DNA of 61,963 nucleotides, the filler included, from Nitrospirae bacterium CG2_30_53_67 (GTDB lineage: Bacteria > CG2-30-53-67): NCBI GenBank assembly GCA_001873285.1. It is 6 parts of 6 records of this genome, joined end to end, with 100 filler letters (N's around TTAATTAATTAA, not from the genome) between each part and the next. Parts side by side here need not be neighbours in the genome. Positions count along the whole stretch, not along the records: positions 1 to 16,398 come from MNYV01000123.1; positions 16,499 to 32,738 come from MNYV01000168.1; positions 32,839 to 49,235 come from MNYV01000138.1; positions 49,336 to 52,872 come from MNYV01000156.1; positions 52,973 to 57,196 come from MNYV01000071.1; positions 57,297 to 61,963 come from MNYV01000089.1. One strand, given 5' to 3'. This document shows positions 1 through 57,436 of the stretch, one piece after another. The notes beneath the pieces are model-generated. The model saw only the letters and a list, made by a program, of their open reading frames with translations. It had not been told where the DNA came from and made no database searches. A program made the position numbers and the translations under genes. Numbering within the stretch: position 1 is the stretch's first letter; the number at the start of each line of letters is the position of its first letter.

Positions 1-183
1 AGTCTTATCAATGATGTTTGGAGATTTACAAATTGTGAATTGGAGACACAAGTATTACTCGCTGAAGATCTTGGTTATATCAGGGATGAGAAGTTAAAGA
101 GACTTAAGAGTGATATCGAGGAGGTTGAGCGGATGCTCAAGGCACTGATCAAATCACTGGAAAACAAACACTTGACCCCTTGA
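1..183 (+). CDS. Four-helix-bundle protein (23S rRNA IVP/Avd-like family), C-terminal part; 5' end outside the window or truncated
   Basis: Frame +1 is open from base 1: ...NCELETQVLLAEDLGYIRDEKLKRLKSDIEEVERMLKALIKSLENKHLTP*. ELETQ..LxxDLGY and ERMLxxLIKSL resemble this family. Not in the ORF track. Confidence 0.75.
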   Translation, partial: SLINDVWRFTNCELETQVLLAEDLGYIRDEKLKRLKSDIEEVERMLKALIKSLENKHLTP

Positions 184-231
184 ACCCTGGAATCCTCGAA
201 CCCTTTTTACCCACTAATTTGGAGATGAACC
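169..231. repeat. 8-nt tandem-repeat element, C-rich right arm (copy A)
   Basis: CACTTGACCCCTTGAACCCTGGAATCCTCGAACCC followed by ACCCAC-N-TGGAGATGAACC; overlaps the four-helix-bundle stop codon. Confidence 0.85.
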
Positions 232-330
232 AGAAAAAGAGATGGGCTTTAAGTTCTCCCCTCCGATCCAGCGAAGGGGGGAAACTGCAGGCAGGATGAG
301 AAACCCTTTCTTGAAACGAGTGACACGAAT

Positions 331-747
331 ATGGCTGTTATTCGATTCGGCATATCGCTTGAAAAACCGCTGCTTGAACGGTTCGACAGGCAGATCAGAA
401 AAAAAGGCTATGCGAGCCGAAGCGAGGCCATCAGGGACCTGATCAGGGACAGCCTTGTGACGGAGGAATGGGAGTCGGCCACTGCCGAGACCGTCGGAAC
501 GATCACCATCGTCTATTCGCATGAGACCCATGAGCTTACAGACACCCTTACGGATCTTCAGCACCGGTATTTTTATTCGATCATTTCTTCCATGCACATC
601 CACCTCGACGAGCACAACTGCCTTGAAGTCATCGTGGTCAAAGGCAAGGCAAAGGATATAAGAGCCATTGCCGACAAATTGATCGGGACCAAGGGGGTGA
701 AGCATGGGAAACTCTCGGTGACCACAACCGGAAAACACCTCAAGTAA
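331..747 (+). CDS. nikR: Nickel-responsive regulator NikR
   Basis: N-terminal ribbon-helix-helix ([17 protein letters not shown]) and [11 protein letters not shown]i site; adjacent to the Ni transporter genes. Confidence 0.96.
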
Positions 748-756
748 ATTTTTTTC

Positions 757-791
757 TTGACAAGGTAACACGAATAATATAATGGTAACAC
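757..791 (+). promoter_or_regulatory. sigma70-like promoter overlapped by a putative NikR operator
   Basis: TTGACA 757-762, TATAAT 778-783 (15-nt spacer); GTAACAC-N13-GTAACAC at 765-791. Confidence 0.6.
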
Positions 792-793
792 TT

Positions 794-958
794 GATCGGA
801 ATCCTGATCCATCATCCCATACGGATCCGGCATTTATCATCGGGGGATTGATTTACTCTGTTTCGGAGAATCTTGAGATCAATTTCGGGATTAAGCGCGG
901 ACTCAACAAACCCGAAACTGACGATTCGGTTCTCGCGGGCATAACCTGGAGGTTCTAA
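794..958 (+). pseudogene. C-terminal remnant of an outer-membrane beta-barrel transporter
   Basis: Reads DRNPDPSSHTDPAFIIGGLIYSVSENLEINFGIKRGLNKPETDDSVLAGITWRF*, with amphipathic strands and a terminal Phe. Its TAA overlaps the nikM ATG (TAATG). No N-terminus or RBS. Confidence 0.65.
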
Positions 959-1644
959 TGCATATCCCCGACGGTTACTTGAGCCCTCAGACCTATGTCC
1001 CACTCTACGGGGCGTCGTTTGTGTTCTGGTCCGTTGCCCTGAGGAAGATCAAGCAGGACCTTTCCACAAAGCAGATTCCGTACCTTGCGATGGCTGCTGC
1101 TTTTTCTTTCCTCATCATGATGTTTAATGTCCCCATCCCCGGAGGAACCACGGGCCATGCGGTCGGGGCGGGCATGATCGCCATCCTCCTCGGACCGTGG
1201 ACGGCGGTCATCGCCGTGTCCGTTGTCCTGATCATTCAGGCCGTGGTCTTCGGTGATGGAGGAATCACCACGATCGGCGCAAACTGCTTCAACATGGCGG
1301 TGGTGATGCCGTTTATCTCCTACTGGGTGTTCAAGGCCGTCAGTGGGAAGTCAAAGAATCCATCTCGGTTATTCCCTGCCGCCTTTCTATCCGGGTATGC
1401 CGGACTTTCCGGCGCAGCGATTGTGACGGCGATCGAGTTCGGCATCCAACCTTTAATTGCCCACGGCGCCGACGGGAGGCCTCTCTACGCCCCCTATCCG
1501 CTGTCGGTTGCCCTTCCTGCTATGGCATTGGAACATCTGCTTTTGTTCAGTGTGATCGAAGGCGTCGTAACCTTTTTGCTGTTCCGGTATTTTCTTAAGT
1601 ACGAGCCGGATTTGGTTTATGCATTATCGGAGACGAAAGTTTGA
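958..1644 (+). CDS. nikM: ECF Ni/Co transporter S component NikM/CbiM
   Basis: N-terminal MHIPDGYL (NikM type); GGTTGH; FGDGG. Confidence 0.93.
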   Translation: MHIPDGYLSPQTYVPLYGASFVFWSVALRKIKQDLSTKQIPYLAMAAAFSFLIMMFNVPIPGGTTGHAVGAGMIAILLGPWTAVIAVSVVLIIQAVVFGDGGITTIGANCFNMAVVMPFISYWVFKAVSGKSKNPSRLFPAAFLSGYAGLSGAAIVTAIEFGIQPLIAHGADGRPLYAPYPLSVALPAMALEHLLLFSVIEGVVTFLLFRYFLKYEPDLVYALSETKV

Positions 1645-1645
1645 G

Positions 1646-1981
1646 ATGACACGGTTTCAGAGAAATCTCTGGATAGGACTCATCCTCATGGCGCTTCTCT
1701 CCCCGCTGGGTATCCTTCTGCCCGGAAGATTCCATGCAGAAGATGCATGGGGTGAATGGGGGATGAATACCATGGAGAAACTTCTGGGGTATGTCCCGCA
1801 AGGCTTGAAGAAATATTCCGAACTCTGGAAGGCTCCCATACCCGATTACAACTTCTGCAGTGAGAACGCCTCCATGACTTTCCAAATAGTCTCCTATATG
1901 ATTTCGGGTTTTCTGGGCATTCTTGCAACAGCGCTGATTGTATTCTTGATTTCGAGGTTTCTAATCAAACATGAAAAGTAA
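1646..1981 (+). CDS. nikN: NikN-like (PDGLE-type) membrane component
   Basis: Two TM segments, AWGEW and APIPDY motifs; lies between nikM and nikQ. Start chosen at ATG 1646. Confidence 0.8.
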   Translation: MTRFQRNLWIGLILMALLSPLGILLPGRFHAEDAWGEWGMNTMEKLLGYVPQGLKKYSELWKAPIPDYNFCSENASMTFQIVSYMISGFLGILATALIVFLISRFLIKHEK

Positions 1982-2894
1982 TATACCCTCATTCTTGCTG
2001 GAAAAACCGCGCCTGAGGTTCCCGGAAAAGACGGGAAAGGTTTCAAGACCCTCCTTTCTTGAAAAAGGGGTGCGGCAGTTCTCCAAATTGATCAGGACCA
2101 CCTATGTCCAGTGGGAGACCGCTAAGCAGGAAGGCTTTTCCCAGAGACTTGATGCAAGGGTAAAGGTTTTGTTTCTGATATTTTTTCTGGTCATCGTCAG
2201 CGTAAAGAAGGATATCCTTCCGGAAGTGCTCATCGGCGCTTTTGTCTTTTTGCTTGCCGCCGCGTCAAAACTGAACCTTGCCGGTTTCTATCGAAGGGCG
2301 CTTTTCTTTGGCTTTGTGTTCGGATTCCTGATTGCCCTTCCTTCGTCCCTGAATATCATAACCCAGGGAGAGGTGATGATTCCGCTGTGTAAGCTTTCAA
2401 GGCCGTATGACTTCTGGATTTATCATGTCCCCGCAAGCATAGGCATGACACGGGAGGGACTGCTCAGCGTTGCCCTTTTGACGCTGCGGGTTGTGAATTC
2501 CATCTCTCTTTCTTTTCTCGTGATCTATACGACCTCGTTTCCCGAGATCATCAGGGCTTTAAAGATCTTCAAGGCGCCGGATGCCTTTCTGATGGTGCTC
2601 ACACTGACTTACAAGTCTATCTTCATCTTTGCGCAAGGTGTCGAAGAGATGCATCTTGCGAAGAAAGGGAGGACGGTGGGCGCGGCTGCTTCGGATGCAA
2701 GGACCTGGGCCGCAGGCAGGATGGCCATCCTGTTCAGGAAAACCCGGATCCGGTGTGAAGAGGTATTCATGGCCATGCAAGGCAGGGGATTTTCGGGTGA
2801 GATCGTGATCTATGCCCCTGCGAAGTTCACGGTCCCGGACTTATTCGCGGGCCTCTTTTTTTTCGTGATCGGTCTTGGGTTTCTCTTATGGTGA
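1971..2894 (+). CDS. nikQ: ECF transporter T component NikQ/CbiQ
   Basis: LDARVK near the N-terminus, several TMs, AMQGRGF motif. Confidence 0.88.
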   Translation: MKSNIPSFLLEKPRLRFPEKTGKVSRPSFLEKGVRQFSKLIRTTYVQWETAKQEGFSQRLDARVKVLFLIFFLVIVSVKKDILPEVLIGAFVFLLAAASKLNLAGFYRRALFFGFVFGFLIALPSSLNIITQGEVMIPLCKLSRPYDFWIYHVPASIGMTREGLLSVALLTLRVVNSISLSFLVIYTTSFPEIIRALKIFKAPDAFLMVLTLTYKSIFIFAQGVEEMHLAKKGRTVGAAASDARTWAAGRMAILFRKTRIRCEEVFMAMQGRGFSGEIVIYAPAKFTVPDLFAGLFFFVIGLGFLLW

Positions 2895-3727
2895 GGTCTA
2901 TGAACGATATCATCCATGCCGAGGAAATTCGTTACAGCTACCACCGGCAATTTGAGGCGCTGGCGGACGTGAGCGTGAAGATTAAACAAGGAGGAAAACT
3001 CGCTGTCATCGGCGCGAATGGATGCGGGAAAACAACCCTTTTGCAGATTTTGGGCGGGCTGAGACATCCCTCCTCCGGACGCGTCTTCTACAGGGGACGG
3101 GAGGTCACCGAGGCTTCATTGAAGGAGAGGGAATTTCTGCGGGTCTTCAGGCAAGGGGTGGGCTATATATTTCAAGACGCGGATGTTCAGTTGTTCTCCC
3201 CGACGGTGTTTGATGAACTGCTCTTTGGGCCCGTGCAACTGGGCATTGAGGAAGATGAGGCTATAGAAAGAGTGCATGGCGTCATGAGAATGCTGGAAAT
3301 AGAAAACCTCAAGGAGAGGCCTTCCTACATGCTTTCCGGAGGCGAGAAGAAGCGGGTGGCGATCGGTTCGGTGCTCACCATGAATCCCGAAGTCCTCCTC
3401 CTTGACGAGCCGACCAACGGCCTCGATCCGAGGACGGAGTGCTTTCTCGTGGAACTCATGCTTGCGCTGAACGCGGCCGGGAAAACCATTGTCGTGGCCA
3501 CGCACGATCTCTCGCTCGTTGACGAATTACAGGCCGACGTGGCGGTCCTCTCCGAGGAGCACAGGATGGAGAGGATCGGCGCCGCAGGCGAGATCCTCAA
3601 GGACCAGGAACTGCTTCTCAAGGTCAATCTCATCCATGAGCATGTTCACCTTCATGGCGCCCATGCGCACAAGCATATCCATTCACATTTTCTCTTTCAC
3701 CGCCACGACGGCGGGAATGAACCCTAG
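2888..3727 (+). CDS. nikO: ECF ATPase NikO/CbiO with His-rich C-terminal tail
   Basis: GANGCGKT, LSGGEKK, LLLDEP; tail HEHVHLHGAHAHKHIHSH. Confidence 0.92.
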   Translation: MVRSMNDIIHAEEIRYSYHRQFEALADVSVKIKQGGKLAVIGANGCGKTTLLQILGGLRHPSSGRVFYRGREVTEASLKEREFLRVFRQGVGYIFQDADVQLFSPTVFDELLFGPVQLGIEEDEAIERVHGVMRMLEIENLKERPSYMLSGGEKKRVAIGSVLTMNPEVLLLDEPTNGLDPRTECFLVELMLALNAAGKTIVVATHDLSLVDELQADVAVLSEEHRMERIGAAGEILKDQELLLKVNLIHEHVHLHGAHAHKHIHSHFLFHRHDGGNEP

Positions 3728-3781
3728 GACAGAGTGACGGACATGGATTCATATGCAGTCGTGTAAGAGAGAATGATCAGA

Positions 3782-4996: not shown

Positions 4997-5030
4997 GAAT
5001 ACCTCCCTTAGTTATTTTATATCAAAACTT

Positions 5031-5073
5031 AACCACAGAGAACACAGAGTCTTTCTCTCGGCACTCTGTGGTT
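5031..5073. repeat. 9-nt-unit hairpin repeat (ACCACAGAG/CTCTGTGGT family)
   Basis: AACCACAGAGAACACAGAG...CACTCTGTGGTT. Confidence 0.8.
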
Positions 5074-5409
5074 TCATCTCTCATGGAATGTAATATAAAG
5101 TTCCGGGACGTTCAAGAACTTTTTGTGCCTATCGCTGTTTCGGGGCCGGCCCTGAAGTTGACAGACGTCGGAAACATTATTAATATGTTAAAAATACCGT
5201 GACTTTTTGGGCCGCATGGGTGCGGGAAGCCGCTGATCAGGCTATAAATGATAATAATATCAGCGAGTTGTAAGTGTTTATTTATTTTTTTGATTTTTTT
5301 TGCAAAAATAAATATCAGTGGTATACTTTAAATCCTTTTCATTCGTACCACGGATTCAACGACTATTCACAGAACGGGGATAGAGAATGCTCATCATAGG
5401 TCGTTCTGA

Positions 5410-6420: not shown

Positions 6421-6438
6421 ATTCAATCGGGATCCGGA

Positions 6439-9420: not shown

Positions 9421-9778
9421 AAAGCCCGGTCCTTTGGGCCGGGTCAGAGTTGAAAGGCTGTGCCGTGTTATTTCGTGGGAAAATTCGAAATTCGAAGCAC
9501 TAAATCCTAAACAAATTCGAATGACCGAAATCCAAAATTCAAGACTTATTTATCCAAATGTTGCATCATCACGTGTAGAATTGAAGCTTGCGAAATAGAT
9601 TCTCTCATGCACGATTTAGGTACAATATACAGATATAGACGAGGTTTTAAACATTTGAATTTTGAGTTTAGGATTTGTTTAGGATTTAGATTTTAGGATT
9701 TCGTATTTTCTACAAGACGCAAGGGAAACCCCTTCCAGGGGTAACACAAAGCTACGTCCTCTGGGCGTGGATGTTTAC
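9421..9778 (+). mobile_element. Putative IS200/IS605-derived non-autonomous element
   Basis: Two related hairpins in the same orientation at the ends: AAGCCCGGTCCTTTGGGCCGGG (9422-9443) and AAGCTACGTCCTCTGGGCGTGG-ATGTTTAC (9749-9778); no transposase ORF. Confidence 0.55.
9479..9710. repeat. Inverted arms of about 7-nt tandem repeats around a ~100-nt spacer
   Basis: Left arm AAATTCG AAATTCG AAGCACT AAATCCT AAAC AAATTCG AATGACCG AAATCC; right arm TTTGAATTTTGAGTTTAGGATTTGTTTAGGATTTAGATTTTAGGATTTCGTATTTTC. Confidence 0.8.
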
Positions 9779-10566: not shown

Positions 10567-10992
10567 GGATTATCTCCAAAAGAATGGGTGAGAACATAAG
10601 GGTCCAAGGGTTCAAGGGTTCCAGGGGTCAAGTGAAGTGCTTTTCAATACTTGAGGGTCCGAGGGGCCAAGGGTTCAAGGGGTCAAGTGAAGTGCTTTTC
10701 AATACTTGAGGGTCCGAGGGGCCAAGGGTTCAAGTGAAGTGCTAAAAATAACATAAGGGGCCGAGGGTTCTAGTGTTTTTCTCTGGAGATTTTACTTGAG
10801 TTTAAGTATTTCACTGGACCCCTTGACCCCAAGATACCTCAGTGTAGTAGCCGTCGCAGACGGTCCCGGCCCGGCAAGAATAGATTCAAGTAGATGCCGG
10901 GATCTAACGACAAAAATAGAGAAAAGCGGGGCACGCGAAGCGTAACCCTGGAATCCTCGAACCCTTTTACCCCACTATGTGGGAGAAGAACC
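10567..10992. mobile_element. 8-nt tandem-repeat element, two-armed (copy B), with internal 55-bp duplication and nested insert
   Basis: Left end TCTCCAAAAGAATGGGTGA, G-rich arm, core CTCTGGAGATTTTACTTG, C-rich arm, right end CCCAC..GTGGGAGAAGAACC. Confidence 0.8.
10831..10945 (+). mobile_element. Small element inserted into the 8-nt repeat (115-nt form)
   Basis: AAGATACCTC...CGAAGCGTAA; matches the reverse complement of 36109-36176 apart from 47 extra nt (10864-10910) and one substitution. Confidence 0.75.
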
Positions 10993-16398: not shown

Positions 16399-16498
16399 NN
16401 NNNNNNNNNNNNNNNNNNNNNNNNNNNNNNNNNNNNNNNNNNTTAATTAATTAANNNNNNNNNNNNNNNNNNNNNNNNNNNNNNNNNNNNNNNNNNNN
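16399..16498. other. Artificial contig linker
   Basis: N-run, TTAATTAATTAA, N-run. Confidence 0.98.
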
Positions 16499-27221: not shown

Positions 27222-27287
27222 TTCACTCGAACCCTGGACCCCTTGAACCCTTGAACCCTGATGTTTTAACCCACTCTTTTGGAGATG
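27222..27287. repeat. 8-nt tandem-repeat element, single arm (copy C)
   Basis: Reverse complement CATCTCCAAAAGAGTGGGTTAAAACATCAGGGTTCAAGGG.. nearly equals 40214-40260. Confidence 0.85.
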
Positions 27288-27323
27288 TCAAAATTATACC
27301 CGATCGTGAGAATTCTGCAAACT

Positions 27324-36064: not shown

Positions 36065-36074
36065 GAAATTGTTT

Positions 36075-36259
36075 AGGGTCAGGGTCCAAGGGGTCAAGGG
36101 TTCCATGGTTACGCTTCGCGTGCCCCGCTTTTCTCTATCTTTGCCGTCTGCGACGGCTACTACACTGAGGTATCTTGGGGTCAAGTGAAATGCTCAATGA
36201 TCAAGTCGTTAGAACACAGACACTCGGACCCTTGAATCCTGGAACCCTCGAACCCTTTG
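36075..36259. mobile_element. 8-nt tandem-repeat element (copy D) with four-helix-bundle remnant and 68-nt insert
   Basis: G-arm, insert 36109-36176, CAAGTGAA-ATGCTCAA, remnant IKSLEHRHSDP*, C-arm. Confidence 0.8.
36109..36176 (-). mobile_element. Small element inserted into the 8-nt repeat (68-nt form)
   Basis: Homologous to 10831-10945, with the same flanking context. Confidence 0.75.
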
Positions 36260-36320
36260 TGCCGTAGTAAGCGGGAGAGCAGTCTTTTTTGACTGATTTT
36301 TCAATGCCGCAGAGGATGAA

Positions 36321-37655
36321 GTGATGAAAAAGATTTACGTGGGACTTTTCGGTCTCGGAACCATCGGGACCGGCCTGGTCAGGGTGCTTGAACAGAACCG
36401 GGATGTGATCCGCCGGAGACTGGGCGCGAAGATCGAGATCAAGAAGATCGTGGATCTCGACATCACGTCGGACCGAGGCGTCAAGATCGAACCGCATATC
36501 CTTTCCACCAGGGCCGAGGATATCCTGAATGATCCTGAGATCCGGATCGTGGTCGAGTTGATCGGCGGGACCGATGCGGCGCTCAGAATCGTGAGGCAGG
36601 CCCTTTCCGCGGGCAAGCACGTGGTCACGGCCAACAAGGCCCTCCTCGCGGTCCATGGCGAGGAACTTTTTACCCTTGCTTCTGAAAAGGGGGTCAAGAT
36701 CGGTTTTGAGGCCAGCGTGGGGGGCGGGATCCCGATCATCCGAATTCTCAAGGAAGGACTCGCGGCCAACCGGATCGAGTCCATCTACGGCATTGTGAAC
36801 GGCACGGCCAATTACATCCTGACCGAGATGACCGACAAGGGGTCCGAGTTCGGGGCCGTGCTCAAGGAGGCGATGAGCCAGGGATATGCCGAAGCGGATC
36901 CCACCTATGATATTAAAGGAACCGATTCTGCGCATAAACTGGCCATCCTGGCTTCGCTTGCCTTCGGGTCGCCCATCCCCCTCGACCGGGTCTATACCGA
37001 AGGGATATCCAAGATCACGCCTGTGGACATCGAGTATGCCCGAGGGTTCGGGTACAAGATCAAACTCCTCGGGATCACCAAGATCTCCGGCGGGGAGGTG
37101 GAGGCCCGCGTGCACCCGACTATGATTCCTGAGGATACCCTCCTGGCGCAGGTGGACGGCGTGTTGAATGCGATCTATGTGAACGGGGACGCGGTCGGGC
37201 CTACGCTTTATTACGGGAGAGGCGCAGGCTCGCTCCCTACGGCCAGTTCGGTGCTGGGGGACGTGATCGAGATCAGCCGTGATATCATCCACGGAGGGAC
37301 GGCACGCGTCCCTTTATGCGCCTTTCTCAATCAAGAACGCCGTCCCCTCCCGATCCGGAACATGGATGACGTCATGTCCAGATATTTCCTCCGGTTCACC
37401 ACAGCGGACCAGCCAGGGGTATTATCGAAGATTTCAGGCATCCTGGCCTCGCACGGGATCAGCATTGCCTCGGTGATTCAGAAGGGAAGAAAGTCGGACC
37501 GCCCGGTCCCCATCGTCATGGTGACCCACAAAGCCAGGGAGAAAGACGTCTTTGATGCGCTTTCCGAGACCGACGTGCTGAATATTGTTTCGGCGAAGAC
37601 GGTACTGATTCGGATTGAAGACGGGGAAGAGACAGTAGACCCCGTCGGAGGATAA
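36321..37655 (+). CDS. hom: Homoserine dehydrogenase with ACT domain
   Basis: GLGTIG, VTANK, EASVGGGIP, GYAEADP. Confidence 0.97.
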   Translation: MMKKIYVGLFGLGTIGTGLVRVLEQNRDVIRRRLGAKIEIKKIVDLDITSDRGVKIEPHILSTRAEDILNDPEIRIVVELIGGTDAALRIVRQALSAGKHVVTANKALLAVHGEELFTLASEKGVKIGFEASVGGGIPIIRILKEGLAANRIESIYGIVNGTANYILTEMTDKGSEFGAVLKEAMSQGYAEADPTYDIKGTDSAHKLAILASLAFGSPIPLDRVYTEGISKITPVDIEYARGFGYKIKLLGITKISGGEVEARVHPTMIPEDTLLAQVDGVLNAIYVNGDAVGPTLYYGRGAGSLPTASSVLGDVIEISRDIIHGGTARVPLCAFLNQERRPLPIRNMDDVMSRYFLRFTTADQPGVLSKISGILASHGISIASVIQKGRKSDRPVPIVMVTHKAREKDVFDALSETDVLNIVSAKTVLIRIEDGEETVDPVGG

Positions 37656-37707: not shown

Positions 37708-38769
37708 GTGACGACGTGGCGAGGAATCATTGAGGAGTATCGAGAGTTTCTTCCAGTAACGGACAAGACGCCGGTCGTGACCCTTCTCGAAGGGAACACC
37801 CCTTTGGTTCGGACGAAACGTCTGGCGGAGGCGATTCATCCGGACCTCGCGATCTATTTGAAGTTTGAGGGGGCCAATCCTACGGGCTCCTTCAAGGACC
37901 GGGGCATGGCCATGGCGATTTCCAAGGCCGTGGAGCAGGGATCCAAAGCCGTGATCTGCGCCTCCACAGGCAACACCTCGGCCTCGGCGGCGGCCTATGC
38001 CGCGCGGGTCGGGATCCGGGCCTTTGTCCTGATCCCGGAGGGGAAGATCGCCTTAGGTAAACTCGCCCAGGCCATGATGCACGGGGCCAGGGTGCTTCAG
38101 GTCAAAGGGAATTTTGATCAGGCCTTGAAGATCGTCCGGGAGGTTTCGGATAGGTATCCGGTCACGCTGGTCAACTCCATCAATCCGTACCGGATCGAGG
38201 GACAGACCACGGCCGCATACGAGGTCTGCGACCGGCTGGAACGCGCGCCGGATTTCCATGCCCTCCCTGTGGGGAACGCGGGAAACATCACGGCCTACTG
38301 GAAAGGATACAGGCGTTACAAGGACGCGGGGAAGATTGACCGCCTGCCGAGGATGATCGGATTCCAGGCCGCAGGGGCCGCGCCCATCGTCCTCGGACAT
38401 CCGGTTGAAAAACCTGAGACCGTGGCCACGGCCATTCGGATCGGGAACCCTGCATCCTGGAAATATGCGGAAGAGGCGGCCAGGGATTCCGGGGGGAAGA
38501 TTGATATGGTGACCGATGAAGAGATCCTGGGGGCGTACCGGATGATCGCCTCGCTTGAGGGGGTCTTCTGTGAGCCGGCCTCAGCCGCCTCGGTGGCCGG
38601 TGTGATCAAGCGGAGCGAAGCCGGCGGATTTCAGGAGGGGGACACCATCGTCTGCACCCTGACCGGGCACGGCCTCAAGGACCCGGATACGGCGATCTCG
38701 GTTTCGGAAAAACCGGTCACGGTCCACGCGGACCTGGATGAGGTGATACGAGCCCTCGGATATAAATAA
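37708..38769 (+). CDS. thrC: Threonine synthase
   Basis: [30 protein letters not shown]. Confidence 0.97.
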
Positions 38770-38966
38770 GGGTTCAAGGATTCGAGGGGCCAAGGGGTCG
38801 AGGGTTTAAAGGTTCAAGAGTTTAAAGGTTTAAGGGTTTAAGGGTTTAAAGGTTTAAGGGTTGATGTTTTCACTTGACCCCTTGACCCCTTGAACCCTTG
38901 ACCCCTTGAACCCTTGACCCCTTGACCCCTTGACCCCTTGAACCCTTCTGTCCCACTACATGTGGG
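38768..38966. repeat. 8-nt tandem-repeat element (copy E), longest arms
   Basis: 12 G-rich units (38768-38863) facing 9 C-rich units (38873-38944). Confidence 0.92.
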
Positions 38967-40197: not shown

Positions 40198-40210
40198 ATC
40201 ATTATTTTTC

Positions 40211-40379
40211 GATCATCTCCAAAAGAGTGGGTGAAAACATCAGGGGTCAAGGGGTCAAGGATTCCAGGGGTCAAGTGAAGTGCTGAAAACATAAGGGGCC
40301 GAGGGGTAAAGGGGTCGAGTGAACTACTCAAACCCTTGAACCCTGGAACCCTTGAACCCACAAAATGGGAGAAGGATCA
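40211..40379. mobile_element. 8-nt tandem-repeat element, two-armed (copy F)
   Basis: GATCATCTCCAAAAGAGTGGGT...ACCCACAAAATGGGAGAAGGATC. Confidence 0.82.
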
Positions 40380-41713: not shown

Positions 41714-41739
41714 GAACCCTTGAACCCTGAAACCCTTTT
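41714..41739. repeat. 8-nt repeat remnant (copy G)
   Basis: GAACCCTT GAACCCTG AAACCCTT. Confidence 0.6.
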
Positions 41740-47050: not shown

Positions 47051-47079
47051 TTTATACCGCTTTGCCGTGAGGTGACTTA

Positions 47080-47261
47080 GTGCCCCTATTCGTAAATACG
47101 GTGGCATTCGAGCGCCGTAGGGCGGGCTCCTCGGCGTTACGCTCCTTGCGGTGTGCCAGAGGGGTACGCCTCAGTCGCGTGCCTTGATGAGACCACCCTA
47201 CGACCCTCTACCGGTAAACGAGTACAAGTCGGTACGTCACCCTATTTACGAACAGGACCAC
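47080..47261 (-). mobile_element. TTA-flanked MITE (182 bp)
   Basis: 19-bp imperfect TIRs with TTA on both sides; about 20 nt longer than the 48986 copy. Confidence 0.88.
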
Positions 47262-47387
47262 TTAGATCCGCCTGTCATCAAAAAAGAGTTGTCAAATCCA
47301 TATTTTTGGGATAAAAATAACGGCACATCGAGAAGAACCGGGAACCGGATGGGTTCCTTAATATGTAAAAAAATAGGAGAATAAGAA

Positions 47388-48914
47388 ATGAAAAGCTTCA
47401 AACAATTCACGGTGGCATTCGTCATCATCCTCGCCTTTATAGGCGGCATGCTTTATGCGGAATACGGCGGTTCCATTCATTCAGCCGGCGCGGCTTTTGA
47501 CTTTTTCAAACCCAGGGTGGAGGCCAAGCCTGAAGAAAAGCCTGCTCCGACCCCTGAAAAGACGGCCCCGCAGCCTGGCATCACACAGGCGCCGCCCTCG
47601 TTCGTGGAACTGGTCCGGAAGGAAAAACCGGCCGTGGTGAACATCAGTACTACGCAGATCATCAAGCAGAAGGGGTTCACCCATCCTCCACTCGGCGGGA
47701 GACAGAGCCCGTTTGACGAATTTTTCGGGGACGATTTTTTCAAGAGGTTCTTCGGTGATGTCCCGCCCAGGGAATTCAAGTCCAAGAGCCTCGGCTCAGG
47801 CTTCATTATCAGCGGGGACGGGTATATCCTGACCAACAATCACGTGATCGAAAACGCCTCTGAGATCAAAGTGAAACTGACAGACGAAAAAGAGTTCGAT
47901 GCCAAGATCATCGGCCGTGACGCCAAAACCGATATCGCACTGATCAAAATAGAAGACAAAGACAATCTGCCGGTCGTGAATATCGGAGACTCGGATCAAC
48001 TTGAGATCGGTGAATGGGTGGTGGCCATCGGGAATCCCTTCGGTCTGGAGCAGACCGTGACCGCAGGGATCGTCAGCGCCAAGGGACGGGTGATCGGCTC
48101 AGGGCCGTATGACAACTTCATTCAGACCGATGCCTCCATTAATCCGGGCAACAGCGGCGGACCCCTCTTCAATATTCGCGGGGAGGTGATCGGGATCAAC
48201 ACAGCCATCGTGGCCAGCGGGCAGGGGATCGGGTTTGCCATCCCGATCAACATGGCCAAGGATATTCTCCCGCAGCTCAAGGATAAAGGCACGGTGACCC
48301 GAGGCTGGCTTGGGGTCATGGTCCAGCATATCACCCCGGATATAGCGGAGAGCCTGCATTTAGAGGGCAAAGAGGGCGCCCTGGTCGCAGACGTGGTCAA
48401 AGGAGGGCCTGCTGAAAAAGCCGGGATCAAACGCGGGGATGTCATCCTGGAATTCGACGGCAAGCAGATCGGGAAGATGAGGGATCTTCCCTCTGTGGTC
48501 GCCTCAACGCCTTTAGGAAAAGAAGTCAAGGTGCTGATCCTGCGGGAAGGAAAGGAAAAGACCTTGACGGTTACGATCACCAAGCTTGAAGAAGAAAAGA
48601 CGGCTTCTTCTGAGACCAAAGAAGAAGCCGGAGATTTCGGAATGAAGGTTCAGGATCTCACTCCTGAAGTGGCCGACTATTTTAATTTGCAGGAGACCGA
48701 AGGTGTGGTGATCGTGGACGTGGACAAGGACGGCGCCGCGGCCGAGGCCGGGATGCAGCCCGGAGATTTGATTTCGGAGGTGAACCAGAAGCCGGTCCGC
48801 TCCCTCAAGGATTACCGGGAGGCCGTCTCACTCAAGAAAGCGGGTGAGCCTTCCCTCTTCTGGATTAAAAGAGGTGACAATACCCTTTACTTCGCAGTCA
48901 GGAAACAGAAGTAA
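47388..48914 (+). CDS. degP: DegP/DegQ serine protease
   Basis: TNNHV, D, GNSGG, two PDZ domains. Confidence 0.95.
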   Translation: MKSFKQFTVAFVIILAFIGGMLYAEYGGSIHSAGAAFDFFKPRVEAKPEEKPAPTPEKTAPQPGITQAPPSFVELVRKEKPAVVNISTTQIIKQKGFTHPPLGGRQSPFDEFFGDDFFKRFFGDVPPREFKSKSLGSGFIISGDGYILTNNHVIENASEIKVKLTDEKEFDAKIIGRDAKTDIALIKIEDKDNLPVVNIGDSDQLEIGEWVVAIGNPFGLEQTVTAGIVSAKGRVIGSGPYDNFIQTDASINPGNSGGPLFNIRGEVIGINTAIVASGQGIGFAIPINMAKDILPQLKDKGTVTRGWLGVMVQHITPDIAESLHLEGKEGALVADVVKGGPAEKAGIKRGDVILEFDGKQIGKMRDLPSVVASTPLGKEVKVLILREGKEKTLTVTITKLEEEKTASSETKEEAGDFGMKVQDLTPEVADYFNLQETEGVVIVDVDKDGAAAEAGMQPGDLISEVNQKPVRSLKDYREAVSLKKAGEPSLFWIKRGDNTLYFAVRKQK

Positions 48915-48962: not shown

Positions 48963-48985
48963 TTGAGTGAGACCTTCCATACTTA

Positions 48986-49148
48986 GTGGTCCTGTTCGTA
49001 AATATGGTAACGTACCGAGAGGGTCGTAGGGTGGTCTCATCAAGGCGCGCGACTGAGGTGTACCCACTGTGGTACGCCGCAAGGAGCGGAACGCAGATGA
49101 GGCCGCCCTACGGCACTCGAATGCGACCGTATTTACGAATAGGGCCAC
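48986..49148 (+). mobile_element. TTA-flanked MITE (163 bp)
   Basis: TTA|GTGGTCCTGTTCGTAAATA...TATTTACGAATAGGGCCAC|TTA. Confidence 0.9.
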
Positions 49149-49235
49149 TTAGTCGGAAATTTTGGGTATGATTTTCGGCTTGTATCCCAGGATGGGGTCA
49201 ATCACAGGCGCATAGCCGGCAGGAACCGGGAAGGG

Positions 49236-49661: not shown

Positions 49662-49772
49662 AAGGGTTCAAGGGGTCCAGGGGCCAAGGATTCAAGTGGA
49701 ATAATGAAACGCAAGCAAAATCTTCAGAGAAAAACACTGGAACCCTTGAACCCTGGGACCCTCGAACCCTTT
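49662..49772. mobile_element. 8-nt tandem-repeat element (copy H)
   Basis: G-arm, core CAAGCAAAATCTTCAGAG (inverted relative to copies B and I), C-arm. Confidence 0.82.
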
Positions 49773-51121: not shown

Positions 51122-51129
51122 AGAACCAC

Positions 51130-51210: not shown

Positions 51211-51241
51211 AGGGGTGACTATTTAAAACGGAGGACTGAAA

Positions 51242-51742: not shown

Positions 51743-51765
51743 GTCAGCCTTGAAATGTTCTCTAA

Positions 51766-51791
51766 GTAGTCCTGTTCGTAAATAGGGCCAC
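51766..51791. mobile_element. Collapsed 26-bp MITE footprint
   Basis: TAA|GTAGTCCTGTTCGTAAATAGGGCCAC|TAA: the two TIRs fused. Confidence 0.7.
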
Positions 51792-52872: not shown

Positions 52873-52972
52873 NNNNNNNNNNNNNNNNNNNNNNNNNNNN
52901 NNNNNNNNNNNNNNNNTTAATTAATTAANNNNNNNNNNNNNNNNNNNNNNNNNNNNNNNNNNNNNNNNNNNN
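52873..52972. other. Artificial contig linker
   Basis: N-run, TTAATTAATTAA, N-run. Confidence 0.98.
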
Positions 52973-53105
52973 ACCGCCGGCCAGCTTGAGCGCCTTGCCC
53001 TCCCACTCTCCCAAAACGACTACGGCCGCTATCTTTTACATATACTGAATGAGGACGGACGAGAAGAATGAGCATGATCGAAACCAGCCGCCCGATTTGG
53101 ATTCA

Positions 53106-53225
53106 TTCCCCTCTCCCCGGTGGGAAGAGCGGGAATCACAAATAGTCTTCCCCTCTTCCCGGAGTGGGAGAGGATTTCACCCGTCATTTCCTCTCCCCGC
53201 GTGGGAGAGGATAAAGGAGAGGGGG
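53106..53225. repeat. REP-like palindromic cluster
   Basis: Three CCTCTCCC..TGGGAGAGG hairpin units. Confidence 0.7.
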
Positions 53226-53304
53226 AAATGCTAAGGAGCTTTTTCATGTTCATTGGATCGCACACTAAAGAGCAATCGTTTTTAGAGTTTTCTCAGGAGT
53301 ATTT

Positions 53305-54069
53305 ATGAATCAAGATACGGAAAGATCTGAAATCAAGACCATTAGAGATCATCCCATCGCAGACACAATAGGGAAACGGAGTTACCTGCCCAAGACATCC
53401 TCCCTTCTGATCAGCCTGGCCATTCTGGGGCTTCTCATTCTTGTCAGCGGGTTTGTTCAGAAAAGGGAATACATTCCAGGGCCCACCAACCTCCGGCAGG
53501 CATTCCCAAGGACCATCGGAGAGTATAAGTCAACAGAGGATGCTCCCATAGATCAAGAAATCCTGGACGAACTCGAACTGACGGATTACCTCAACCGAAC
53601 TTATCTTTCCCCTAAGGGCTACGCGGTTCATCTCTACGTGGGGTATGTAAATTCTCAAAACGAGATGCCGTTGATTCACACCCCCGTCGGGTGTCTGCCG
53701 GGAGGCGGGAACGCAATACTATCGCATGAAGCGGTTCCCTGGTGGCAGGCCCCGGCCGGCCGAGGGCAAGCCGGCCAGCAGGAGCCGTCCCAGAACATCA
53801 ATCTGATTCGTCTGGCCAGCGGTGAGGAGAAGCAGATTGTCATCTACTGGTACCAGGAGAGGGGCCGTATCATTCAGAACGACTGGATGGAAAGGTTTTA
53901 TCTTTTCTGGGATGCGGTGGTCCGAGGAAGGACCGACGGCGCCCTGGTCCGGTTCATCACGGCGGTGGGGCCGTCCGAAAACATGGAGCAGGCCGAACAA
54001 AGGATACGAGATTTTGTCCAGAAAACCATACCGTTCCTGCAGAGCGAGCTTCCCGGAAAAGACACGTGA
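53305..54069 (+). CDS. epsI: EpsI family exosortase-associated protein
   Basis: YLNRTY, IHTPVGCLPGGG, YWYQ, RTDGALVR. Confidence 0.9.
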   Translation: MNQDTERSEIKTIRDHPIADTIGKRSYLPKTSSLLISLAILGLLILVSGFVQKREYIPGPTNLRQAFPRTIGEYKSTEDAPIDQEILDELELTDYLNRTYLSPKGYAVHLYVGYVNSQNEMPLIHTPVGCLPGGGNAILSHEAVPWWQAPAGRGQAGQQEPSQNINLIRLASGEEKQIVIYWYQERGRIIQNDWMERFYLFWDAVVRGRTDGALVRFITAVGPSENMEQAEQRIRDFVQKTIPFLQSELPGKDT

Positions 54070-54956
54070 AAGGTGCAGAAGATATGACTGGTGCAACGAA
54101 CATTACCAAGAATGATTCCCTGTCCCCGCTCCTGTTGTGCCTGGCCTGCCTGGGTCTACTGGCCTGGTTGTTTCAGCCCTTCGCCGGGAAGGTGGTTGAA
54201 TTCTGGACCGAGAACCCGACCTACACCCACAGCCCCCTGATCCCCTTTGTTATTGCTTATCTCATCTGGGATAAGCGAAAGACCCTGGCCGAGACAGAAA
54301 TAGTGCCTTCATACAGGGGCGGTCTGCCTATGCTCCTGATCAGTTCTCTCATCTGGATTGTCGCCGTGGGAGGCAAATCTCGCTTTGCCGTCGAGCTAAC
54401 TTTTGTTTTTTTGATTATTTCGGTCGTCTGGTTGAACTTCGGATCGGCGCTCACCAAGAAGCTTTCCTTCCCGTTATTTCTCCTTTTAATGATGGTCCCT
54501 ATCCCGACAATCCTTTACGCGGCCATATCCAGGAAGCTGCAACTTCTTTCGTCCACATTCGGCGTGGCGTTCATACAATTGTTTTCCATCCCGGTCCACG
54601 GTGAAGGGAACATCATTTATTTGCCCGAAACCACACTACAAGTGGCCGAGGCCTGCAGTGGGATCAGCTCTCTGGTCTCACTCTTCACGCTCGCCATGAT
54701 TTATGCCTACATCAGCCAGAAAGGATTTCTACGGAGATCCCTCATTGTTCTCAGTTCGTTTCCTATCGCCGTGTTTATGAACTGGGTACGGATCGCCGCA
54801 ACGGGGATGATTGCTCATTATTGGAGTCTTGAATACGCACAGGGTTTTTACCATAGTTTTTCGGGTTGGATTGTTTTTATTGTGGCCTTTGGTATTTTCC
54901 TGATGGTGGGGTCTGCGATATCGTATTTCTCTAAGGCAATGATGAGTCGCTCTTGA
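54066..54956 (+). CDS. Exosortase (EpsH family)
   Basis: YTH, VAEACSG (Cys), NWVR (Arg), FYH (His); many TMs. Confidence 0.93.
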   Translation: MKGAEDMTGATNITKNDSLSPLLLCLACLGLLAWLFQPFAGKVVEFWTENPTYTHSPLIPFVIAYLIWDKRKTLAETEIVPSYRGGLPMLLISSLIWIVAVGGKSRFAVELTFVFLIISVVWLNFGSALTKKLSFPLFLLLMMVPIPTILYAAISRKLQLLSSTFGVAFIQLFSIPVHGEGNIIYLPETTLQVAEACSGISSLVSLFTLAMIYAYISQKGFLRRSLIVLSSFPIAVFMNWVRIAATGMIAHYWSLEYAQGFYHSFSGWIVFIVAFGIFLMVGSAISYFSKAMMSRS

Positions 54957-54978
54957 AGGCGAAGACAAGGAGTGATCC

Positions 54979-56064
54979 ATGAAGATAGCGCTTATTACCG
55001 GCATCACGGGCCAGGACGGGGCCTACCTGGCGGAGCTTCTGTTGAAAAAGGGTTACAACGTTCACGGGATCAAGCGCCGCGCCTCGCTGTTCAACACGGA
55101 TAGAATTGATCACTTATACAAGGACCCGCACGAGAAAGAGAGCCGATTCCATCTGCATTATGGCGACATGACGGATGCGACCAACCTGATCCGCATTGTC
55201 CAGGAAACCCAGCCGGATGAAATCTACAACCTTGCCGCACAAAGCCATGTCAAGGTCTCCTTTGAAACGGCTGAGTACACGGCCAATGCCGACGCCCTCG
55301 GAACGCTTCGCCTGCTCGAGGCTTTGCGCATACTGAATCTGGAGAAAAAATGCAGATTCTACCAGGCCTCCACCAGCGAGATGTACGGGAAGGTGAGAGA
55401 AGTTCCGCAAACAGAAACCACGCCTTTTTATCCTCAGAGCCCTTACGGGGCGGCCAAGGTCTATGCCTACTGGATCTGTGTCAACTACCGCGAGGCCTAC
55501 GGTATCTACGCCTGTAACGGGATTCTCTTCAACCACGAATCACCCATTCGCGGGGAAACATTTGTCACGCGTAAGATCACCCGGGCCGTGTCCCGGATCC
55601 ATCTCGGTCTTCAAGATCGAATCTTCCTGGGGAACCTCAACGCCAGAAGGGACTGGGGCCATGCCAAGGATTACGTAGAAGCCCAATGGCTGATCCTGCA
55701 GCAGCCCGAGCCGGATGACTATGTGATCGCCAGCGGCGAGCAGCATTCGGTGCGAGAGTTTGTCGAGATGGCTTTCAAGGAGGTTGACATAGAGATCCGG
55801 TGGGAAGGTAAGGGAGTGGATGAGAAGGGTATTGATTCCAAGAGCGGCAAAGTTTTGGTCGAAGTCGACCCGAGTTACTTCAGGCCTACAGAGGTGGAGA
55901 GTCTTCTGGGAGATCCCACCAAAGCCAAAGAAAAACTCGGCTGGAAGCCGAAGATCAGTTTTTCCGATATGGTTGCCGAGATGGTCCGGGAAGATATCCA
56001 GGAAGCGAAAAAAGATGAGTATTGCAAGAACGGCGGGTTCAAGACCTTTCATTATTTTGAATAG
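54979..56064 (+). CDS. gmd: GDP-mannose 4,6-dehydratase
   Basis: [30 protein letters not shown]. Confidence 0.98.
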
Positions 56065-56124
56065 CAGAGCTCTATTCTGGTTGCTGACCAAACGAAAAAT
56101 CAGCATAATATTGGGGGCAACGGG

Positions 56125-56457
56125 ATGAAGTTGAAACCATACGAACGAAAAGCCCTTAACGAAATTATAAAGAGGATCGTCGAGCGCTTTAATCCGGAAA
56201 AGATCATCCTTTTCGGGTCCTATGCCCATGGGTCGCCTGGACCGGATAGTGATGTGGATCTCTTAGTCGTTATGCAGATTGAAGGGTCACGTCGAAGCAA
56301 GGCAACGGCAATGGACCTTGCACTTGTCGGGGTGGAAGTCCCGGTGGATCTGATCGTTGTGACTCCTGAAGAAATCGAAAAGCACCGTGACCAGATAGGA
56401 ACGATCATCCGTCCGGCGCTGCGCGAGGGAGAAGTGCTCTATGAGCGAACGGCCTGA
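56125..56457 (+). CDS. Minimal nucleotidyltransferase (MNT)
   Basis: LFGSYAHG..DSDVDL. Confidence 0.92.
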   Translation: MKLKPYERKALNEIIKRIVERFNPEKIILFGSYAHGSPGPDSDVDLLVVMQIEGSRRSKATAMDLALVGVEVPVDLIVVTPEEIEKHRDQIGTIIRPALREGEVLYERTA

Positions 56458-56848
56458 GAATTCAGAAGAAGTCGCTCGGTGGATTGAAAAAGCCGAAAAC
56501 GATTTCAGAAACGCTGAACATACCTTGACACTTGAGGTTGACTGCCCATTTGATACGGTATGTTTTCATGCTCAACAATGCGCTGAAAAATATCTCAAAG
56601 CGCTTCTTGTATCCTTATCTGTCGATTTTCCAAAAACACATGACCTGCGCTTATTAATGCAACGTGTTGCGGGAAAGATTACGCTTGATATAGAAATTAG
56701 TGATGTGCTGGTTTTGAACCGGTACAGCATTGAGGCTCGCTATCCCGGTGATTGGGAACCCATAGATCGTGATGAGGCTGAAAAAGCAGTGGCTATCGCC
56801 CGACAAATTCGCAAACGAGTCAGGGCCAATCTCCTGACCAAGGGATAA
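56441..56848 (+). CDS. HEPN domain protein
   Basis: W..KA..D, CFHAQQCAEKYLKA, KTHDL, RYPG; overlaps the MNT gene. Confidence 0.92.
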   Translation: MSERPENSEEVARWIEKAENDFRNAEHTLTLEVDCPFDTVCFHAQQCAEKYLKALLVSLSVDFPKTHDLRLLMQRVAGKITLDIEISDVLVLNRYSIEARYPGDWEPIDRDEAEKAVAIARQIRKRVRANLLTKG

Positions 56849-56951
56849 ATTTTGATATATTCCAAGCTCTTTACCTGTGTCCATTGTTTCCTTTTCACAG
56901 AATTGGAGAGAGCAAGGGAGAGGGGGCGTTGATCATTCCCAGGTTCTTTTT

Positions 56952-57192
56952 TTGTCATCCTCCGGCGCGACCGGGGGATCCAACTGTCATTGCCCGACTG
57001 GATCGGACAATCCAGAGTCGTTCCCCAGCGTTCCCCTCTCCCAATGGGAAGCGCGGAAATCACAAAGAGTTTTTCCCTCGCCCCAGCGTGGGAGAGGGCA
57101 GGGTGAGGGGAACAATTTCCTCCGTGCCCTCCGCTCTTTCTGTGGAGCGTGTCTTTGCAATTGGTTTTAGCCAGTTACATCTTTTCTCTGCG
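56952..57192. repeat. Mixed cluster of REP-like palindromes
   Basis: GTCATCCTCCGG..CCGGGGGATCCA, GTCATTGCCCGA..TCGGACAATCCAG, CCCTCGCCCC..GGGAGAGGGCAGGGTGAGGGG and a half 9-nt arm. Confidence 0.7.
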
Positions 57193-57196
57193 ATCT

Positions 57197-57296
57197 NNNN
57201 NNNNNNNNNNNNNNNNNNNNNNNNNNNNNNNNNNNNNNNNTTAATTAATTAANNNNNNNNNNNNNNNNNNNNNNNNNNNNNNNNNNNNNNNNNNNN
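57197..57296. other. Artificial contig linker
   Basis: N-run, TTAATTAATTAA, N-run. Confidence 0.98.
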
Positions 57297-57436
57297 AGGG
57301 GTCAAGGGGTCAAGGATTCCAGGGGTCAAGTGAAGGGCTAAAAACATAAGGGGTCGAGGGTTCAAGGGTTTTTCTCTGGAGATTTTGCTTGTGTTTCAGC
57401 ATTTCACTTGAATCCTCGACCCCTTTTTACCCGCTA
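57297..57436. mobile_element. 8-nt tandem-repeat element (copy I), left end cut by the gap
   Basis: G-arm as in copy F, core CTCTGGAGATTTTGCTTG as in copy B, short C-arm. Confidence 0.82.

Follow-up and report, generated by a model that had tools for sequence, protein, structure and literature searches.

The octamer repeats dispersed through the draft genome of Nitrospirae bacterium CG2_30_53_67 are probably (we estimate about 80%) ISL3-type MITEs derived from a founder cassette with a PF05635 gene in a hairpin, of which gene-less forms were amplified. The elements have conserved ends similar to the repeats of ISL3 insertion sequences, 8-bp target duplications, a deletion series, and a distribution restricted to one bacterial family; the transposase acting on them is presumably of the ISL3 family. 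The founder would have been a mobile insertion cassette, in which a 123-aa gene of the PF05635 (S23p/23S-rRNA-IVS) type, already enclosed by a hairpin of its own made of inverted 8-nt tandem repeats, lay between two ISL3-type ends. Internal deletions would have taken out the gene, after which the gene-less forms would have been amplified. The elements would move as DNA through a DDE transposase of the ISL3 family acting in trans, with 8-bp duplications of AT-rich targets as a result.

Octamer arrays and their ends

The window, which is the whole 61,963-nt stretch analyzed here, consists of six contigs with 100-N linkers between them, so neighborhood across any linker is uninformative. The draft genome from which it comes amounts to 2.37 Mb in 183 contigs and is 95% complete. 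An earlier note on this DNA had listed nine loci sharing an 8-nt unit in variable number, with a G-rich arm facing a C-rich arm. Tandem Repeats Finder reported period-8 arrays at all nine loci, with 2.9 to 9.4 copies, and the layout is inverted as described, with C arms beginning CACTTGA opposite G arms that have CAAGTGAA at the end. The outer ends proposed in the same note are shared by only part of the set. Allowing up to 5 substitutions, we found TCTCC..GTGGGT ends in the window at five loci, 225(-), 10573(+)/10986(-), 27285(-), 40216(+)/40372(-), and 57445(-), but none at 36075-36259, 38768-38966, 41714-41739, and 49662-49772. At 36075-36259 and 49662-49772, there appears to be a decayed end beyond the C arm.

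The longest assembled family-1 element (426 bp; 10567..10992, plus strand) is complete, with both ends found, and runs from a type-A end through G arms, nested modules, and a C arm to a type-B end. Its G arms contain an internal tandem duplication of 55 nt (2.5 copies), and its flanking 8-mers, TTAATCAA and TTAATTAA, are alike at 7 of 8 positions. Another complete element, 169 bp from type-A end to type-B end, occupies the apgM-ask spacer (40210..40378, plus strand), and its RNA is predicted to fold at -61 kcal/mol (z = -3.9). Contig starts cut the element at 1..231 (plus strand), of which the right-hand part remains (gene remnant with stop codon at 181-183, C arm at ~167-205, and type-B terminal repeat with its outer end at 231), and the element at 57297..57451 (plus strand), which retains a G arm, core, short C arm, and degenerate type-B end with 4 mismatches. 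Decayed elements lie in the alaC-hom spacer (36075..36290, plus strand; G arm, nested ACGCTTCGCGTGCCCCGC module, C arm, degenerate type-B end) and in the leuA-leuC spacer (49662..49772, plus strand; G arm, AATCTTCAGAGAAAAACACT core, C arm, degenerate ends). At 27222..27291 (minus strand; C95:10787), a solo type-A end with one mismatch to the end core accompanies an octamer array, and no partner end was found for it. The thrC-apgM spacer holds a long hairpin of ~10 G units against 9.4 C units (38768..38966, no strand assigned) with no recognizable terminal repeat, and the ask-cimA spacer holds an isolated array of three C units (41714..41739, minus strand), also without a terminal repeat. The genes flanking the alaC-hom, thrC-apgM, apgM-ask, ask-cimA, and leuA-leuC spacers are co-directional, as had been noted. 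These element-bearing intercistronic spacers belong to an amino-acid biosynthesis cluster.

Across the draft genome, we detected 154 arrays of at least three units and 225 conserved ends (118 type A and 107 type B), which give 70 complete pairs and 85 solo ends. Complete elements are 67 to 426 bp long and non-coding, with no transposase gene inside, and are bounded by imperfect terminal inverted repeats of ~28 bp, GG(A/T)TC(A/T)TCTCC..AGTGGGT(G/A)AAAA. We found no end pairs with a matching duplication 450 to 4000 bp apart. In total, 38 of the 85 solo ends are no more than 350 nt from a contig end and face it, which explains the fragmentation of the draft genome.

Target duplications and similarity to ISL3

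The 8-mers just outside GG(A/T)TC(A/T)TCTCC are identical in 15 of the 70 complete elements and have at most one difference in 28 of them, compared to an average of 1.49 and at most 6 for shuffled pairings (1000 trials). No exact match was found for target duplications of length 7 or 9; the signal occurs at length 8 only. The duplications lie in AT-rich DNA. ISL3 elements are described as generating 8-bp direct repeats and favoring AT-rich DNA (PMC3469429). The ends of our elements match ISL3 repeats from metagenomes at 22 to 24 of 28 positions and the sister-species copy at 21 of 28, with a shuffled maximum of 15. In the sister species, the repeat GGGTCTTCTCCCAAACGAGTGGGTAGGAA stands upstream of a decayed, truncated ISL3 transposase, and 80 metagenome loci encode transposases 74 to 87% identical to it. 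TCTCC-type repeats occur at 19 of these 80 loci (e.g., GGCTCTTCTCCCAATCGAGTGGGTAAAAA and GGGTCATCTCCAAAGTGAGTGGGTGATT), and perfect 8-bp AT-rich duplications occur at at least 11. Given the ISL3-matching terminal repeats and the exact 8-bp AT-rich duplications, we infer that the elements are miniature transposons of the ISL3 type, mobilized in trans at the DNA level. A cognate transposase is described as able to activate both MITEs and mobile insertion cassettes (PMC3129680).

Some observations fit this explanation less well. PF01610, the ISL3 transposase domain, was not found in the 95%-complete, 183-contig draft; three of five relatives have it, and the copy in the sister species is truncated. 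Binned assemblies often lack insertion sequences. In the MITE, the two conserved repeat boxes stand 1 nt closer together than in the IS repeats, based on 11 aligned TCTCC-type IS repeats from six loci and the sister species. Flanking 8-mers differ at two or more positions in 42 of the 70 complete elements, and 42 of the 154 arrays are more than 300 nt away from any recognizable end. An observation in favor of the explanation is that the 208 kb surrounding the 80 ISL3 loci contain no octamer arrays; the arms are not an ISL3 feature and would belong to the gene cassette, not to the IS.

Of eight further genomes from the same bacterial family, five had family-1 elements, compared to none of 32 genomes outside it; they are restricted to one bacterial family. 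A comparison of orthologous spacers, which the earlier note had suggested, revealed a difference: the alaC-hom and apgM-ask spacers, which hold an element here, are both without one in the sister species (2/2 tested).

The PF05635 gene and its hairpin

In family 1, the gene begins with a GTG start right after the G arm ..CAAGTGAA and its stop lies within the first C unit, so arm, open reading frame, and arm form a discrete unit, as had been proposed. The four-helix-bundle open reading frame reported at 1-231 is indeed fused to the C arm, with its stop in the first C unit, but it is not intact. The window copy (1-183) keeps residues 14-24 and 73-123 of the 123-aa protein and, because it is a remnant, scores 29.7 bits against PF05635, under the Pfam gathering cut-off of 33.8. 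The intact form (P0002) scores 141.9 bits (23S_rRNA_IVP, E = 1e-41), and the fragment on contig C140 scores 45.6 bits. A G arm upstream of base 1, a further check that had been suggested, is present on contig C176, which overlaps window 1-134 at 100% identity and carries a type-A end, G arm, and gene start, although the join is not certain because the sequence is repeated.

All 24 assembled gene copies, including window 1-231, are deletion remnants, and none is complete. Deletion breakpoints are common to dispersed copies, with residues 25-72 missing in seven contig pieces and residues 32-95 missing in five, indicating that gene-less forms were amplified. These gene-less derivatives, the empty copies of the earlier account, constitute a nested deletion series in which copies with a common deletion keep both ends. 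Among the best 120 matches in relatives, 95 are exactly 123 aa long and 81 have the C-terminus ..KSLENKHL(N/T)P. The N-terminal read-throughs of some relatives spell the G arm, and 123-aa relatives occur in other phyla.

Inverted 7-8-nt tandem arrays bracket PF05635 genes generally, with a lineage-specific unit sequence. When we checked PF05635 matches for flanking inverted arms, as the earlier note had recommended, the bracket exceeded all 400 controls in 11 of 18 genes, with 10 of the class's 14 genomes represented. In a broader set of genes from diverse bacterial families, it exceeded all 48 controls in 18 of 25. A hairpin around the gene is thus the usual state in this family. We found no description of inverted tandem-array bracketing of PF05635 genes in the literature searched. 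A second, unrelated hairpin family, absent from the earlier list, lies at 9470..9710 (no strand assigned) and has inverted arms of 7-8-nt units (AAATCCT, AAATTCG); on contig C169, an intact PF05635 gene is enclosed by these same arms.

Alternative explanations and related systems

Bracketing this far above chance favors an alternative in which arm, four-helix-bundle gene, and arm make up a hairpin cassette that is mobile independently, by an undiscovered mechanism, and that entered an ISL3 MITE or was captured by one; the protein would bind the arm repeats of its own cassette and might help it move, and ISL3 would account for the last burst only. Also in its favor are an intact 123-aa version on record, identical across the 67 residues kept by contig C140, and the second family, which has about six dispersed copies of the same plan in the genome, some of them gene-less, with no ISL3-like ends. 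In addition, a loose ISL3-end search over ~233 kb of PF05635 and P0002-relative loci returned 23 scattered single matches and no flanking pair. We nevertheless consider this alternative unlikely: no target duplication and no defined end were seen for the non-ISL3 cassettes, the family-2 cassette and its gene occupy orthologous positions in the two species (85-94% nucleotide identity), which looks like vertical inheritance, and the amplification of gene-less family-1 forms indicates that the gene is not needed in cis.

The earlier note had proposed spread by an unknown, possibly RNA-based route, i.e., an Avd-like protein and a reverse transcriptase working through an RNA intermediate and leaving empty copies. 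The long stem it envisaged is borne out by the predicted transcript fold, which loops out the open reading frame remnant (z = -6.2), and the protein matches a bAvd-like Pfam model weakly, at 35.5 bits (cut-off 40). However, terminal inverted repeats and duplications of a fixed 8 bp indicate DNA transposition of the DDE type, whether cut-and-paste or copy-paste, copies with a common deletion retain both ends, and the outer ends match the inverted repeats of a known IS (ISL3), an outcome the note itself had named as contrary to its proposal. Its suggested screen for a reverse transcriptase partner yielded a single RVT_1 match in the genome, truncated and with a group-II-intron maturase domain, and no DGR reverse transcriptase among the matches examined. 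An RNA intermediate is thus highly improbable. The protein belongs to a four-helix-bundle fold family related to DGR Avd, with its bAvd score under the cut-off and its Pfam assignment to 23S_rRNA_IVP; we rejected an Avd identity given that the single RVT_1 match is of the group-II-intron type. We give almost no weight to the arrays being REP-type repeats, immobile and with a structural or regulatory role, which a Y1 (RAYT/IS200-type) transposase would spread or which would arise in spacers through slippage and recombination. This holds despite three PF01797 (Y1) matches in the genome, the position of elements between the cistrons of an amino-acid biosynthesis cluster, and the variable unit number. 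To our knowledge, Y1 transposases produce no target duplication and use no long terminal inverted repeats, and both are present here. No family-1 element adjoins any Y1 gene of the genome, the nearest family-1 end being ~1 kb from the Y1 gene on C69, and a REP/RAYT (REPIN) identity was rejected on these grounds.

The preferred reading, ISL3-type MITEs, places the elements beside ISL3 insertion sequences, MITEs, and mobile insertion cassettes, which have GGNTCTT..GTGGGT terminal repeats and an 8-bp AT-rich duplication. MITEs and mobile insertion cassettes also resemble our elements in lacking an internal transposase and in their high copy number, internal deletion derivatives, and founder passenger gene. 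Unlike in ISL3 elements, the interior here is a long tandem-octamer hairpin, not seen at the 80 related ISL3 loci, a PF05635 gene serves as passenger, and the repeat spacer is shorter by that single nucleotide; unlike for ISL3 MITEs, no cognate transposase was found in this 95%-complete assembly. Cyanobacterial STRRs are short tandemly repeated heptamers. The TAACTGA heptamers of Beggiatoaceae are likewise described as intergenic tandem repeats abundant in some genomes (PMC4679880). Both resemble the present arrays as abundant intergenic tandem short units but are direct arrays upstream of genes, and the portions of the source drawn on here describe no inverted PF05635 bracket. The 23S rRNA intervening sequences encoding S23p (Coxiella, Leptospira) share a PF05635 open reading frame inside long-stem terminal inverted repeats; suspicions of their mobility date back to 1990-93, and both origin and functionality are still described as unclear (PMC4990558). 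In contrast, our elements lie in protein-gene spacers and have tandem 8-mer arms, IS-type ends, and duplications. An identity as 23S rRNA intervening sequences was rejected given the position between protein-coding genes and the absence of Rfam matches in the window.

There is a modest chance that PF05635 genes are distinct, widespread cassettes with hairpin arms of ~3-10 lineage-specific 7-8-nt units, whose pentameric protein recognizes its own arm repeats and which ride any carrier (rRNA, operons, open reading frames, ISL3 ends). If so, the window would be the first case with a nameable carrier, and one route for the S23p/IVS type. We know of no function or origin assigned to S23p/IVS-type four-helix-bundle genes since about 1990. 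ISL3-type ends and duplications on one cassette lineage provide a named, testable DNA route of cassette spread, which would leave gene-less hairpins in operon spacers. As a general companion of PF05635 across bacteria, tandem 7-8-nt hairpin arms suggest a specific interaction between protein and repeat, one amenable to bench work.

Octamer arrays and their outer ends

The draft assembly of Nitrospirae bacterium CG2_30_53_67 comprises 2.37 Mb in 183 contigs (53% G+C). Six of these contigs make up the window (61,963 bases), joined by 100-N linkers at 16399, 32739, 49236, 52873, and 57197, so gene order across a linker has no meaning. The earlier note had described nine loci that share an 8-nt repeat, and we found period-8 arrays at all nine, two of which (1-231 and 57297-57436) are truncated by contig starts. 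The spacers that it had named, alaC-hom, thrC-apgM, and leuA-leuC, were also confirmed, and apgM-ask and ask-cimA are flanking gene pairs as well. The window gave no matches to Rfam at gathering scores. Over the whole genome, a simple unit pattern yielded 154 arrays with at least three units.

By inspection, we recognized conserved outer ends of two nonidentical types: type A (GGATCATCTCCAAAAGAGTGGGTGAAAACAT, then G units and ..CAAGTGAAGTGCT) and type B (read inward, GGTTCTTCTCCCATTTAGTGGGTAAAAAGGGTTCGAGG). A search with a 22-nt core, allowing up to four substitutions, detected 225 ends genome-wide (118 A and 107 B), which resolved into 70 complete pairs (66 A-B, two A-A, and two B-B) and 85 solo ends, 38 of them facing a contig end within 350 nt. 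The complete elements, here referred to as family 1, span 67 to 426 bp with the six outermost bases counted in. Complete elements contain 57 of the 154 arrays; another 47 have a solo end no more than 300 nt away, 8 are near contig ends, and 42 are distant from every recognizable end, some of the 42 being visibly decayed copies. An exact search of a public genome collection for the end pattern returned 11 stretches in only two other assemblies. The stretch is contained in 23 sequencing runs, with no RNA runs listed among them; in four runs, the Logan contigs end at every element, and none spans an empty site.

Several family-1 elements have additional internal structure. Within the 426-bp element, a 55-nt unit (G units plus GTGAAGTGCTTTTCAATACTTG) occurs in 2.5 tandem copies at 10599-10734, indicating that whole arm modules duplicate, beyond single 8-nt units. 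A module running from ACGCTTCGCGTGCCCCGCTTTTCTCTAT to GCCGTCTGCGACGGC is present in opposite orientations at 36108-36180 and 10826-10945, and in either orientation in many family-1 elements; it has the appearance of an additional nested insert. Outside the window, a palindrome of about 28 to 33 nt (CCCCGTTAGAG..CTCTAACGGGG) is nested in family-1 elements of contigs C160, C170, C105, C127, and C164, at sites reading ..GTGAA/TGAAG.. or ..TTTCA/TTCAC.. Because TGAA/TTCA is duplicated on either side, this palindrome resembles a mobile insert of very small size. The A-A elements at C50:6954-7246 and C7:6533-6822 are palindromic, and DNA beyond their ends is also inverted-repeated in both, which suggests that they are fold-back or recombination products, not simple insertions.

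Target duplications and ISL3-like ends

Duplications of a fixed length, placed outside terminal inverted repeats, are characteristic of DDE transposases. When flanks were aligned on the true termini, GG(A/T)TC(A/T)TCTCC, before comparing 8-mers, the 8 bases directly outside one end matched those outside the other perfectly in 15 of 70 elements and with no more than one mismatch in 28 of 70. Shuffling left and right partners as a control gave 1.49 on average and never more than 6 in 1,000 trials. At lengths of 7 or 9, with the register kept, there were no exact matches. The duplicated 8-mers are AT-rich; ISL3 members are described as making 8-bp direct repeats and as possibly preferring AT-rich DNA (PMC3469429).

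The ISL3 DDE domain (PF01610) was not found in this genome, nor were any elements of 450 to 4,000 bp with matching ends and a duplication; the domain is present in three of five relatives. On contig C17 of a sister species (G001), an ISL3 transposase is frameshifted and truncated, with GGGTCTTCTCCCAAACGAGTGGGTAGGAA upstream. A metagenome scan with this transposase retrieved 519 relatives, the best 80 loci being 74 to 87% identical, with elements approximately 1.37 kb long. Among these best 80 loci, 19 have TCTCC-type repeats (for example, GGCTCTTCTCCCAATCGAGTGGGTAAAAA at L041 and GGGTCATCTCCAAAGTGAGTGGGTGATT at L044), and at least 11 have perfect 8-bp AT-rich duplications. The ends of the noncoding family-1 elements, which we read as ISL3-derived miniature transposons (MITEs), agree with these ISL3 repeats at 22 to 24 of 28 positions with one gap, compared to at most 15 for shuffled sequence. 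The frame GGTTCT..GTGTGGGTAA is kept in a more distant ISL3 element from another genus in the family. We dropped an assignment of type A to IRR and type B to IRL, as scores separate the ends inconsistently.

The earlier note had proposed a possibly RNA-based route that leaves empty copies, and had named a match between the outer ends and the terminal repeats of a known insertion sequence as one outcome that would count against it. The ISL3-like ends constitute such a match, the 8-bp duplications are as expected for ISL3, and the genome's single reverse-transcriptase match is a truncated sequence of group-II-intron maturase type; the RNA route is therefore not borne out. Y1 transposase genes are present in the genome, yet they would leave the target duplications unexplained. 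A cognate transposase can, according to one account, activate MITEs and mobile insertion cassettes (PMC3129680). We infer that ISL3-type transposition in trans replaces the mechanism proposed earlier.

The four-helix-bundle gene and its deletion remnants

The genome contains 14 matches to PF05635, the four-helix-bundle family. Two complete genes, on contigs C67 and C169, lie outside family-1 repeats, and the family-1 elements themselves contain eleven fragments, of which eight are at contig ends; one further match on C169 was left out of this sorting. In 16 family-1 copies, the G arm is followed by the gene leader. Querying protein sequences with the longest fragment (67 aa, contig C140) retrieved an intact 123-aa protein, P0002, which is identical to the fragment at 67 of 67 residues and matches PF05635 (E = 1e-41). 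Its N terminus is MLKHYKELKVWQ, with a GTG start immediately after ..CAAGTGAA; it ends in ..KSLENKHLTP, with the stop codon within the first C unit.

Mapping P0002 onto the genome identified 24 loci, and the assembly has no complete copy among them. Residues 25 to 72 are absent from seven contig pieces with at least five distinct left flanks, a class that includes window 1-231, and residues 32 to 95 are absent from five; there are smaller classes too. Because these breakpoint classes are common to dispersed copies, deletion came first and copying afterwards, and the PF05635 gene is not required in cis.

The earlier proposal that arm, gene, and arm form a discrete unit held up, given recurrent protein ends in relatives and read-through of the G arm. 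Among the 120 best relatives of the C140 fragment, 95 are exactly 123 aa long, 86 contain ..KSLENKHL(N/T)P, and 81 share the exact C-terminal end. Nine have longer N termini, several of which include ..RGQGFKGSSE, the translation of a G arm ending CAAGTGAA. Source labels for some relatives are Nitrospirota, Syntrophaceae, and Desulfobacterales. For the 123-aa protein, a survey of 400 additional genomes gave no relative above 56% identity, and viral contigs gave none above 47%; none of the PADLOC defense-system models matches the four-helix-bundle proteins. Since 208 kb around related ISL3 loci contained no octamer arrays, the arms would belong to the gene cassette rather than to the insertion sequence. 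For an element with a gene remnant, the predicted fold is a single long stem from which the remnant loops out (-83 kcal/mol, z = -6.2), and a gene-less element is predicted to fold better than shuffles (z = -3.9). The structural half of the earlier interpretation is supported, and extends to other PF05635 genes; the mechanism is not.

Distribution, a second family, and inverted arms in general

Family-1 sequence has 34 matches in the sister species and also turned up in four further genomes from this organism's bacterial family; a search of 32 genomes from outside the family detected it in none. In the sister species, the orthologous alaC-hom and apgM-ask spacers are without the element and contain other short repeats. 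Its alaC-hom spacer (G001:C27 ~2371-2470, L160; orthologous to window 36065-36340) has a different small hairpin of GTTCAAAC-type 8-mers, indicating that such spacers gather unrelated tandem-repeat hairpins. Another repeat family, of approximately 170 to 190 nt, is present as inverted copies at window 47073-47266 and 48982-49153, flanking a degP/htrA-type protease gene (47388-48914); the sister species has roughly 20 matches to this family, and each of the two window copies shows high summed contig depth.

Both intact PF05635 genes of this genome are bracketed by inverted tandem arms of 7-mers, GCAGTGR-type at C67 and AAACTCT-type (70 nt) at C169, of unrelated sequence. The C67 cassette (L001, 600-2210) is embedded in a Type III methyltransferase coding sequence (PADLOC MTase_III, E = 1.8e-86, match in three stretches), whose reading frame is open through the entire cassette (536 aa). 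Arms of the C169 type define a second hairpin family, which recurs at six or so loci, window 9470-9710 among them; gene-less hairpins with a loop of 11 nt are found among its copies, and no copies have ISL3-like ends. The sister species has the C169 cassette at the orthologous position (85 to 94% identity); the gene is intact in each of the two species, and the cassette is apparently a stable resident.

PF05635 was found in 79 of 251 sampled genomes. We scored bracketing as the best inverted match between 220 nt upstream and 220 nt downstream of the gene. Within this organism's class (18 genes from 10 of 14 genomes searched), 11 genes scored above all 400 random controls and 13 reached the control maximum. 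In a sample of 28 loci from varied bacterial families, 18 of the 25 testable loci scored above all 48 shifted same-locus controls, with an arm period of 7 nt in 14 loci, 8 nt in three, and 9 nt in one. Subscription journals aside, we found no description in the literature linking PF05635/S23p genes to flanking heptamer or octamer arrays; in passages of three papers, the PF05635-type protein is called uncharacterized and IVS elements are said to be of unclear origin (PMC11270868, PMC3936711, PMC4990558). When approximately 233 kb from PF05635 loci and loci of P0002 relatives was scanned permissively for ISL3-like ends, only 23 scattered single matches and no flanking pairs emerged, which argues that capture by ISL3 ends would be special to family 1.
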